Part shown: positions 25,568 through 27,303 of the stretch, piece after piece | How the letters are laid out: each line of letters opens with the position of its first letter | Numbering within the stretch: position 1 is the first letter of the stretch | From: Candidatus Nomurabacteria bacterium RIFCSPLOWO2_01_FULL_42_17 | GTDB lineage: Bacteria; Patescibacteriota; Minisyncoccia; Phycocordibacterales; UBA9973 | DNA: 64,000 nt | Assembly: GCA_001785985.1 (NCBI GenBank) | Contig: MFVE01000005.1 | Location: 112,533 to 176,532 of the forward strand | Direction: 5' to 3' | Position numbers and translations under genes: made by a program | Notes under the pieces: model-generated | What the model was told of the DNA's origin: nothing | The model's input: only the letters and a program-made list of their open reading frames with translations | The model's database searches: none

Positions 25568-26572
25568 ATGCGAAGTATATACAAAACTTATAAAACTGGA
25601 ATTATTAAACTAGGTAAAGATGAGTTGTTCTATAAAATTCTTAATGAAAAAGATTTCAATTCAGAAGTTGTAGGTTATAAGGCTTTATTGAATCACTACC
25701 CAGTACCTAAACTTTTGAGCTACATTAAAATTAATAAAGATTCATACTGCATGCTCTTTAAAAGAGAGATTTCTGTGGGCGTAGAAAAAGGTTTGCTTGT
25801 CGATTTATTTGCAAGCAAAAAGAAGCTAGAGAAAGATTTTTTAAAAATAATTAAACTTTATCGAGAAGTGTTTTTGAAAACTCTCAATCAAACTAAGTAC
25901 ATATCATGTAATATTTTCTTTTCTGATAGAGTTAACGGTCGGTTACCAAAATACTACAATAAAGTTTTTCTAAATAAAAAATTTAGTTTTTCCTTGAATG
26001 GAAAAGGTGTAAATATAAAACTAGAAGATTCTATAAAAGAAATCCAAAAATATTTTAAAAGGAAAATATTTTTTTGGTCGGTTATATCTCAGTGTGATCC
26101 AAGCGATTTAAATATAGCCATCAAACCTATTGTTTTTGATTATACTGCTGGAGGGAATGTACCAATCATGGCTGAATTTGCTACATTTTTTTGGTGTCAG
26201 CTTTTTCACGGAAACTATTTAGCGCTTAAGTATAACCCTAAGTCATTTACGAATCATCGAGCAATATACAAAAAGATTGATAAAGTTATAATGAAAAAAG
26301 ATAAAATTATTCATACACCCATGAAGCTCAGAAAAGAGTTTTTAGAAATGTATATTAAAGAAGTAATCAATCCTTGTTTTTATAAAATAGGTAATAATTA
26401 CCCAGATTGGTTTACTGATTTTAAAAATTTTCTCGCAATGAGAATCATTGGCGTTTACAATATTTCAAAAATGGATAAAAAAGATATGCTTTTATCCCTG
26501 GGATACCTTTCTATTTTTTATAATGCAAAAGATATAAAAAAGCCAGAGGATTTATTAGAATTAATTGATTAA
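25568..26572 (+). CDS. Hypothetical protein, possibly a degenerate kinase-fold (APH/choline-kinase-like) protein. Very AT-rich.
   Basis: SQCDPSDLNIAIKPIVFDYTAGG resembles the h.HxDLxxxNIL..//..IDFEY catalytic region of APH/ChoK-type kinases, with the His replaced. GC is visibly lower than in the flanking genes. Confidence 0.3.
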   Translation: MRSIYKTYKTGIIKLGKDELFYKILNEKDFNSEVVGYKALLNHYPVPKLLSYIKINKDSYCMLFKREISVGVEKGLLVDLFASKKKLEKDFLKIIKLYREVFLKTLNQTKYISCNIFFSDRVNGRLPKYYNKVFLNKKFSFSLNGKGVNIKLEDSIKEIQKYFKRKIFFWSVISQCDPSDLNIAIKPIVFDYTAGGNVPIMAEFATFFWCQLFHGNYLALKYNPKSFTNHRAIYKKIDKVIMKKDKIIHTPMKLRKEFLEMYIKEVINPCFYKIGNNYPDWFTDFKNFLAMRIIGVYNISKMDKKDMLLSLGYLSIFYNAKDIKKPEDLLELID

Positions 26573-26574
26573 GT

Positions 26575-27303
26575 ATGTTACATGAAATAACTAAGGAAAA
26601 TTATACTAATACCGAGAATAATTTTTTTGCTTCAATTTTAAAATTTTTCGGTGAAGATTTGCTTTTATATTGTGTTACCGGAAGTCTCTCGAGAAATGAA
26701 GTAATACCTAGATGGAGTGATATTGATGTGTTGATGGTTATGAAAGAATGTAATCTAGTGACACTTTCTAAAATTGAGAACACACTTAAACAAACACAAA
26801 CTAACATTAAAATTGGCGTTACTTTCTATTCACTTTCGGAATTTAATAATTTATTTTTTAAGGATTCAAAAACATATCTATCTATTAGATATATAAGTGA
26901 AAAATATTATATTCCACGCATACTAAGTTCAGAGATAAAAATCCAGCTTCTACCTGAAGAAATGTTTAGACATAATGATGCATTCGAGTTTGCGCGATTC
27001 GTTCATGATTTAAAACGAGAATTATTAATAAAAGATATCCGCAATGAACGAAAAGTATATAAACTTTCTATAACTTTACTTAAAATTGCTCTTAGACAAA
27101 GAGGTGTTGTTGCACTTGGATATAAAGAAACAATTGAAAAGGCAGAGAAAAATTTACCAAATTTTTCTGAAATACATATTATGGAACCGGAAGAAGTTAT
27201 GGCTAAGCCAGAAAAAATTGTAGAAAGATATGAAACTTATGGGAGAATTATTGAATGGGTAACAAAAAATACTGATACAGTATTTGTTAAAAAACCAATC
27301 TAA
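26575..27303 (+). CDS. AadA/ANT(3'')(9)-like nucleotidyltransferase
   Basis: LYCVTGSLSRNEVIPRWSDIDVLMV matches the LYGS...G......SDIDLLV NTase motif of aminoglycoside adenylyltransferases. A helical C-terminal domain of matching length (242 aa) follows. Confidence 0.5.
   Translation: MLHEITKENYTNTENNFFASILKFFGEDLLLYCVTGSLSRNEVIPRWSDIDVLMVMKECNLVTLSKIENTLKQTQTNIKIGVTFYSLSEFNNLFFKDSKTYLSIRYISEKYYIPRILSSEIKIQLLPEEMFRHNDAFEFARFVHDLKRELLIKDIRNERKVYKLSITLLKIALRQRGVVALGYKETIEKAEKNLPNFSEIHIMEPEEVMAKPEKIVERYETYGRIIEWVTKNTDTVFVKKPI

Follow-up and report, generated by a model that had tools for sequence, protein, structure and literature searches.

We examined a low-GC gene pair in a 64,000-nucleotide stretch of contig MFVE01000005.1 from Candidatus Nomurabacteria bacterium RIFCSPLOWO2_01_FULL_42_17 (the whole stretch is hereafter called the window). 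The first gene, K, encodes a protein with a kinase fold and the second, N, a nucleotidyltransferase of the DNA polymerase beta (pol-beta) superfamily. K and N form the core of a multi-gene module together with a Nudix hydrolase and a tandem P-loop kinase, and are not a stand-alone antibiotic-resistance cassette. Gene neighbourhood is the decisive evidence for this. While both folds are known, the two families, their combination and the module are uncharacterised. We lean towards the view that K and N are co-translated enzymes of a conserved, uncharacterised accessory pathway acting on a hydroxyl-bearing, sugar- or nucleoside-like small molecule, a metabolite which K most likely phosphorylates and N nucleotidylates.

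Encoding contigs, together with GTDB genomes and JGI metagenomes, yielded 50 non-redundant K loci. In 42 of them the downstream sequence is long enough to judge the next gene, and in 31 of these 42 it is N. Partners were counted in the 37 loci having at least 4 kb on one side: a Nudix gene is present in 33, the tandem P-loop kinase in 31, N in 30, an O-carbamoyltransferase in 25, a dehydroquinate synthase (DHQS)-like enzyme in 22 and an adenosine-deaminase-like gene in 12. A HAD phosphatase of roughly 200 aa occurs in 7 loci and a short-chain dehydrogenase/reductase in 6. By homology (E 1e-59 to 1e-68) the carbamoyltransferase belongs with TobZ, GdmN and NovN, and the DHQS-like protein is nearest to true DHQ synthases, yet falls below the aroB cut-off.

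Several of these partners are also joined physically. In one locus (L018) P-loop kinase, N and Nudix make up a single protein of 810 aa, and in another (L022) N is fused to Nudix. K itself was found in the arrangements Nudix-K, K-Nudix, K-histidine phosphatase and, with a helix-turn-helix domain, HTH-K; some K proteins carry weak BtrH_N/DUF1839-like N-terminal regions, which remain below the Pfam threshold.

In the window, the four genes K, N, Nudix and P-loop kinase (U385) are all adjacent (Table 1). Each is 34-58% identical to its counterpart in the clusters of loci L004-L008; for Nudix the range is 46-58%, and U385 is 38-50% identical to cluster proteins of 384-390 aa, the alignment beginning at its residue 48. 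The four genes rank these relatives consistently, L004 being first for K, N and P-loop kinase and second for Nudix, which argues for co-inheritance. The TobZ-type carbamoyltransferase and the DHQS-like enzyme, which stand in the operon in about 60-70% of loci, were not found in the 64 kb by tblastn, nor was the deaminase. The same four-gene minimal form recurs in L022, L045, L046 and L053, and Nudix and P-loop kinase are kept in every minimal form.

Table 1. Features of the K-N region, in window positions
Feature	Position	Strand	Length	Basis or remark
Promoter-like/leader element upstream of K	25407..25505	+		extended -10 (TGTTATACT) and AAGGAG-like box
K, small-molecule kinase, protein-kinase-like (APH/MtnK) fold	25568..26572	+	334 aa	
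N, pol-beta-superfamily nucleotidyltransferase with C-terminal helical domain (AadA/ANT-like architecture)	26575..27303	+	242 aa	
GC-containing hairpin between the convergent N and Nudix genes	27308..27339			terminator scan
Nudix hydrolase	27358..27747	-	129 aa	PF00293, E 7e-17
U385, tandem P-loop kinase-like protein	27766..28923	-	385 aa from Met48	two Walker A motifs

A pattern-limited scan of 185,579 species genomes confirmed 17 loci. Rare but widespread among uncultured lineages, the module was found in Patescibacteria, in gut metagenome-assembled genomes and on one Lactococcus plasmid. A metagenome scan with K alone gave no confirmed relative, while the alignment-based scan did give loci. 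K was not found in 72,556 plasmids or 50,697 phage records, and N was not found in the phage collection; a single plasmid match of N, with 24% identity, lies within a fusion protein.

Distant relatives of K retain an N-like protein together with a thymidylate-kinase-like or U385-like P-loop kinase, and adjoin a carrier protein, AMP-binding enzymes, ABC exporters or an integrase. In two of these loci, L029 and L030, K has a long N-terminal extension, with a weak BtrH_N match in L029 and no Pfam domain in L030. K is accompanied by a carrier protein, a thymidylate-kinase-like gene and an NTP_transf_5 enzyme in L029, and by ABC exporters, an AMP-binding enzyme and an integrase in L030. Both loci look like gene clusters for exported metabolites. 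The plasmid case (L031) is an IS6-flanked module on the conjugative Lactococcus lactis plasmid p275D (NZ_CP016702.1, 30819-34471), the sole such case in the 72,556 plasmids, and its products are annotated as hypothetical proteins. Here a 709-aa fusion joins a P-loop kinase domain to an N-like nucleotidyltransferase, the K homologue is split into open reading frames (ORFs) of 77 and 246 aa and has a canonical HGD loop, and a hexapeptide acyltransferase replaces the carbamoyltransferase.

Next, we consider the two core proteins themselves. The spacer between them measures only 2 nt: the K stop codon TAA is followed by GT and then by the N start codon ATG. Both ORFs and their spacing are as given in the original prediction, and the motifs quoted there are present. 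Having homologues and confident AlphaFold2 models, K and N are real genes and not chance ORFs. The folds assigned to them originally, a kinase fold for K and an AadA-like two-domain fold for N, were borne out by the models and by structural matches.

A word-index search yielded 41 homologues of K, and an exhaustive hidden Markov model (HMM) search of 1.84 billion proteins yielded 367 cluster representatives at E<=1e-3. The AlphaFold2 model of K, built from the family alignment (mean pLDDT 94), has the bilobal kinase fold with a helical substrate-binding lobe, and K is far nearer to small-molecule kinases than to protein kinases. Conservation was measured on 167 family representatives aligned to the K profile. 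Lys23 is kept in 151 of 153 sequences, Glu33 in 155 of 157, Asp177 in 166 of 167, and Asn182 and Asp191 in all 167. At position 175, 143 sequences have Gln and 18 have His; at position 176, 107 have Gly and 54 have Cys. The complete catalytic set of the aminoglycoside phosphotransferase (APH)/choline-kinase group (beta3 Lys, alphaC Glu, HxDxxxxN loop, metal-binding Asp) is present in K, its positions being assigned from the secondary structure of the model and not from residue-level superposition. The loop [Q/H]-[G/C]-D-x4-N, followed by the metal-binding Asp, is the Brenner motif of these enzymes; residues 174-196 of K read SQCDPSDLNIAIKPIVFDYTAGG, and the loop of the Lactococcus homologue reads SHGDPSDMN.

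The original prediction took K for a degenerate kinase which had lost its catalytic His. In the alignment, Gln/His at position 175 is a tolerated, family-wide alternation, and in kinases of the APH/choline-kinase type the catalytic residue is the Asp, not the His of HxD. Since Asp177, Asn182, Asp191, Lys23 and Glu33 are essentially invariant, K looks like an active kinase, and the pseudo-kinase label has to be dropped. Near-invariant Arg121 and Arg125 suggest an anionic substrate.

In spite of its fold, K reached no Pfam or NCBIfam family at E<=1, the PF01636, APH and MtnK models included. It had no PADLOC match and only a chance-level match in PHROGs. A PDB sequence search gave one chance match, the PDB profile search with the K alignment was empty, and hhalign produced no meaningful alignment between the K alignment and an approximate NPTII sequence. 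The K family, which is uncharacterised, has no Pfam or NCBIfam model.

For N, between 14 and 23 homologues were recovered, and the AlphaFold2 model made from the family alignment has a mean pLDDT of 90. A protein on record for Candidatus Nomurabacteria bacterium RIFCSPLOWO2_01_FULL_42_17, a CPR/Parcubacteria genome, is identical to N. Residues 31-55 (LYCVTGSLSRNEVIPRWSDIDVLMV) contain G36-S37-x11-D49-I-D51, which fits the pol-beta motif hG[GS]-x(9-13)-D-h-[DE]-h. Over a 21-sequence alignment G36, D49 and D51 never vary and S37 hardly does; the 14 closest homologues keep all four without exception. Further invariant residues are K79, G81, D97, K99, T100 and K163, three of them forming D97-x-K99-T100. 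The 21 best Foldseek matches of N are all aminoglycoside nucleotidyltransferases (ANTs), with TM-scores up to 0.61 (AadA), and N superposes on the two-domain fold of AadA/AAD(9). Identity to AadA-type structures is only 12-15%.

Membership of the ANT and APH families, as suggested originally, was not supported by profile searches. From the profiles proposed for checking it, N reached PF01909, a generic family and the sole one it reached, exactly at the 21-bit cut-off; PF13427 was not matched by N, nor PF01636 by K. N had no match to the ANT(3'')/ANT(9) NCBIfam models at E<=1, and the only ANT model it touched was ANT(4')-I, with 14.6 bits against a cut-off of 350. A PDB profile search with the N alignment was empty. 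In the PDB sequence search, TALE-repeat proteins came up with E values down to 7e-8; these were discarded as an artefact, because each matching stretch scores below 3 bits and the score is summed over repeats. When the N alignment was broadened and used as a profile, it picked up nothing beyond the family itself and no bridge to known ANT families, and phylogenetic placement of N among ANT(3'')/ANT(9) or other ANT families is therefore impossible. The outcome which the original prediction had named as its refutation did not occur either: K has a kinase fold, and N falls into generic PF01909 and into no specific non-ANT family.

Base composition of the pair is indeed extreme, as was noticed originally. 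Its 1,736 bp (25568-27303) have a GC of 0.277 compared with a window mean of 0.398 (sd 0.034, non-overlapping 1.7-kb windows), and just 0.02% of sliding windows are lower. The GC of K is 0.274 and that of N 0.281, the mean over the 65 window genes being 0.396; at third codon positions (GC3) the values are 0.245 and 0.173, and the mean 0.386. K and N have the lowest GC among the 65 genes, and N also the lowest GC3. GC3 below 0.28 is nevertheless shared by about a dozen of these genes, purF included. Over the window, gene GC3 spans from about 0.17 to 0.55, and the low-GC3 group contains purF (19415), TauD (20859), a decarboxylase (30028) and ORFs at 34286 and 35401. Because of this wide spread, compositional heterogeneity is a trait of the genome and not of K-N alone.

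In most other genomes, too, the homologous cluster has its lowest GC in K and N, and usually its highest in the Nudix/P-loop kinase pair (in L007, 0.25 and 0.28 for K and N versus 0.47 and 0.45). Low GC is partly intrinsic to the K-N family. With K and N GC-poor elsewhere, and with other low-GC3 genes in the window, low GC on its own is weak evidence for recent acquisition. In many of the genomes with the related loci L004-L016 (e.g. L007, L010), the cluster is split in composition, its GC being low in the K, N, carbamoyltransferase and DHQS-like genes and well above the local average in the Nudix/P-loop kinase pair. In L007, GC3 is 0.20-0.23 in the former and 0.42-0.43 in the latter.

Repeats flanking K-N gave only chance-level AT-rich matches when insertion signatures were sought. 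The closest relative of the pair, L028, has 89% nucleotide identity and another upstream context, and some rearrangement or mobility has therefore occurred.

From what was observed directly, that is, the folds, the conserved catalytic residues, the tight K-N coupling, the synteny and the fusions, we infer activities, an order of steps, a kind of substrate and a nucleoside diphosphate (NDP) linkage. K would act as an ATP-dependent small-molecule kinase phosphorylating a hydroxyl of the metabolite. N, with its GS...DxD pol-beta site and ANT-like helical domain, would move a nucleoside monophosphate (NMP) from a nucleoside triphosphate (NTP) onto the same metabolite, probably onto the phosphate put there by K, giving an NDP-linked species. 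An NDP-X product is favoured because Nudix enzymes cleave nucleoside-diphosphate-X compounds and both K and N occur fused to Nudix. The adjacent Nudix would then cleave or edit the pyrophosphate linkage, and the tandem P-loop kinase may handle the nucleotide side (NMP to NDP to NTP) or add further phosphates. Elsewhere, the TobZ-type O-carbamoyltransferase and the DHQS-like, HAD phosphatase and adenosine-deaminase-like enzymes would make or tailor the substrate.

Several points weigh against this pathway. The NDP-linkage step is its weakest part: nucleotidylation of hydroxyl groups is the reaction of the proteins structurally related to N, the nearest of which are resistance enzymes, and we know of no pol-beta-fold enzyme forming NDP-X through phosphate attack. 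In an hhalign comparison of N with an approximate AadA sequence (probability 10%), invariant Gly81 falls at the position of catalytic Glu87. Near-invariant Glu89 and invariant Asp97, both nearby, could replace this Glu. We found no paper on the module or the gene combination in the literature, and neither family has a characterised member. Since the window is without carbamoyltransferase, DHQS-like and deaminase genes, no biosynthetic pathway would be complete within the 64 kb. Some distant relatives stand in mobile contexts (the IS6-flanked plasmid copy and the integrase-adjacent copy with ABC exporters), and resistance or conflict functions would account for the sporadic distribution just as well.

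A bolder version, which is possible but doubtful, would make the core and its accessories an undescribed pathway to a nucleotide-linked, carbamoylated carbasugar or nucleoside analogue in bacteria of the candidate phyla radiation (CPR) and uncultured gut bacteria of the Firmicutes type. Its ANT-fold (pol-beta) enzyme would be an NDP-X synthase working on a phosphate supplied by a new kinase family, a chemistry which, to our knowledge, has not been described for this fold.

Known systems resemble the module in part. AadA/ANT(3'')(9) and AAD(9)/ANT(9) enzymes (PDB 7uy4, 6sxj, 5lpa, 4cs6) share with N the pol-beta domain with G-S-x(9-13)-D-x-D, the C-terminal helical domain and a similar length (about 250-263 aa). 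The differences are the low identity and absent profile matches given above and the invariant residues of N's own, K79, G81, D97-x-K99-T100 and K163. Moreover, AadA-type genes reside in integrons or transposons, whereas N has its place in a conserved operon and occurs joined to Nudix and P-loop kinase domains. With MtnK and the APH/choline-kinase group, K shares the Brenner-type loop, the metal-binding Asp, the beta3 Lys and the alphaC Glu; unlike them, it mostly has Gln for His and matches none of their models. K and MtnK have the fold alone in common, K being surrounded by Nudix, P-loop kinase and carbamoyltransferase genes and not by mtn or other methionine-salvage genes.

The same combination of activities as in the module is found in NadR and NadM-Nudix of NAD salvage, where P-loop kinase, nucleotidyltransferase, Nudix and sometimes HTH domains, often fused, build and cleave a pyrophosphate-linked dinucleotide. 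Their NMN adenylyltransferase has, however, a HIGH-motif Rossmann-like fold, they show no homology to K or N, and the module contains no conserved nicotinamide-related gene. Activation routes similar to the one proposed here are those of HldE/GmhB to ADP-heptose and of AmgK/MupP/MurU to UDP-MurNAc. In acarbose biosynthesis, the kinase AcbU, the phosphatase AcbJ and the nucleotidyltransferase AcbR act in series to give GDP-valienol (PMC9200736). The module is alike in clustering a kinase, a HAD phosphatase (in its 7 loci), a nucleotidyltransferase and an enzyme of the sugar-phosphate-cyclase type. Nucleotidyltransferases of all these routes have GlgC/RmlA or cytidylyltransferase folds, in contrast to the pol-beta fold of N; furthermore, the module has no conserved glycosyltransferase, and its Nudix and tandem P-loop kinase have no counterpart there. 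The kinase Mur28 and the nucleotidyltransferase Mur29 form a self-resistance pair for muraymycin (PMC12710036). Compared by description only, they resemble K and N as a co-encoded kinase and nucleotidyltransferase acting on one small molecule, and differ from the module in that fusions to Nudix or P-loop kinase are missing. Mur28 belongs to the P-loop (TmrB-like) kinases and not to the protein-kinase-like ones.

The main rival to the metabolic pathway, unlikely in our opinion, is self-resistance. The full cluster would make a toxic aminoglycoside-, cyclitol- or nucleoside-like compound, and K and N would each inactivate this compound, phosphorylating and adenylylating a hydroxyl of it; genomes with the minimal form would have kept the protective genes only, as orphan immunity against the product of a neighbour. 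Fold comparison does place kinases of amicoumacin, corramycin, viomycin and hygromycin self-resistance among the neighbours of K, and the structural neighbours of N fit as well. Four-gene forms without biosynthetic-looking genes recur, distant K relatives adjoin ABC exporters, AMP-binding enzymes and a carrier protein, and for muraymycin a kinase and a nucleotidyltransferase are documented to modify the same hydroxyl (PMC12710036). On the other hand, fusions such as N-Nudix-P-loop, K-Nudix, K-histidine phosphatase and the (weak) BtrH_N-like ones are atypical of pure resistance enzymes, a simple modifying-enzyme model does not need the Nudix and P-loop kinase that persist in every minimal form, and no toxic product is known. 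A further alternative is the resistance pair of the original prediction, a horizontally acquired ANT(3'')/ANT(9)-like adenylyltransferase and an APH-like kinase conferring resistance to classical aminoglycosides. We regard this as very improbable, even though K has an APH-type fold, the pair has the lowest GC in the window and CPR genomes are reported to carry very divergent resistance-like genes (PMC8651080). None of the ANT(3'')/ANT(9), APH, PF13427 or PF01636 models is matched, PDB profile searches are empty, N has neither a profile bridge to known ANT families nor more than distant identity to AadA-type structures, and low GC is typical of K and N in most carrier genomes. Synteny and fusions with Nudix, P-loop kinase and carbamoyltransferase are conserved, and K is absent from the phage and plasmid collections, where N has its one plasmid match; the claim of an acquired pair is not supported by these findings.

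An anti-phage or conflict system working on nucleotides seems improbable to us, though less so than the acquired pair. Here the module would make or destroy a modified nucleotide, or N would act on RNA, protein or nucleotides in the manner of MNT or CD-NTase enzymes, with K, Nudix and P-loop kinases as accessory nucleotide-processing parts. Weak PADLOC matches of N to PDC-S09, PDC-M05A and oligonucleotide cyclases, the match of the window Nudix to PDC-S07 (E 1.8e-13) and that of a neighbouring Ser/Thr kinase to PD-T4-6 point in this direction, as do the sporadic distribution and the related modules situated between IS6 elements on the conjugative Lactococcus plasmid and beside an integrase. 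These PADLOC matches are, however, generic domain-level similarities, and N fits antibiotic nucleotidyltransferases better than MNT enzymes or cyclases. The pairing of a nucleotidyltransferase with HEPN, typical of MNT-HEPN toxin-antitoxin systems, was not recognised: N lacks the HEPN motif Rx4-6H, its conserved His144 and Arg148 standing in reverse order. The module has no conserved effector-like component (nuclease, pore or NADase), and no homologue of K or N turned up in the phage collection. Hardly credible, finally, is a regulatory pair consisting of a pseudo-kinase scaffold and a protein-AMPylating nucleotidyltransferase of the GlnE or DrrA type. All catalytic residues of K are conserved and its affinity is to small-molecule kinases, N is much nearer to ANT enzymes than to GlnE or DrrA, and the partner genes that are conserved code for metabolic enzymes.

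In published surveys, resistance-like genes of CPR genomes were identified by 20-40% similarity to resistance genes (PMC8651080), a criterion which can mislead, as the case of K and N illustrates. Resistance-like folds in these genomes are easily over-read, and it is the context that shows an AadA-shaped and an APH-shaped enzyme to be parts of a conserved metabolic or tailoring module. With its defined partners and natural fusions, the module is a tractable target for enzyme and metabolite discovery. If its product is nucleotide-linked or a nucleoside analogue, this would bear on competition or scavenging by ultra-small symbionts.

The promoter-like element in front of K is repeated in the window. 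An nhmmer profile located four copies, all on the + strand, at 25407-25505, 29017-29107, 22206-22272 and 19336-19398, preceding K, EamA, a 58-aa ORF and purF, respectively; the sequence reads TTGTAAT.ATAATATTCCTGAATTTAAT.AATATGTTATACTA...GAAGGAGATAAAA. Between the K and EamA copies, identity is 89% over 91 nt, a likeness beyond the needs of a promoter, which suggests recent duplication or a shared regulated leader. The element had no Rfam match, and an Rfam scan of 19-30 kb gave nothing credible. L028 carries the element upstream of K as well (L028 579-676). Between it and K, this locus has an 84-aa Cys-rich ORF with 12 Cys (L028 745-999); the same place in the window is taken by a 34-aa hydrophobic ORF (25457-25561).

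On the other side of the pair, the hairpin has a 14-pair stem followed by a T-run on the - strand, and was scored as an intrinsic terminator for the - strand unit. Both Walker A motifs of U385, GxDGxGKT and GGxSExGKS, are invariant. U385 forms part of a 432-aa ORF (27766-29064, -). The ATG at 28923 is preceded, at a distance of 6 nt, by AAGGAG, and the additional 47 codons of the longer ORF overlap the promoter-like element of the divergent EamA gene. The longer ORF is probably mis-started, Met48 being the likely true start.

TauD, HAD, Ser/Thr kinase, DUF6875, EamA and decarboxylase genes of the window were considered as module members and rejected; their homologues are absent from related loci, and they are therefore outside the module. 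Four tightly packed, higher-GC genes at 22544-25200 (-) encode a HAD hydrolase, a Ser/Thr protein kinase, a DUF6875 protein and a 124-aa protein. The protein kinase is the one matching PD-T4-6 in PADLOC (E 5e-11). As none of these genes adjoins K-N in other genomes, they may represent a separate accessory or defence-type unit. A low-GC ORF of 153 aa (21742-22203, +) has no Pfam or NCBIfam match. It contains a nucleotidyltransferase-like GG...G...DVDFIV motif and matches phrog_12854 (E 2.8e-6), and may thus encode a second small nucleotidyltransferase near the pair.

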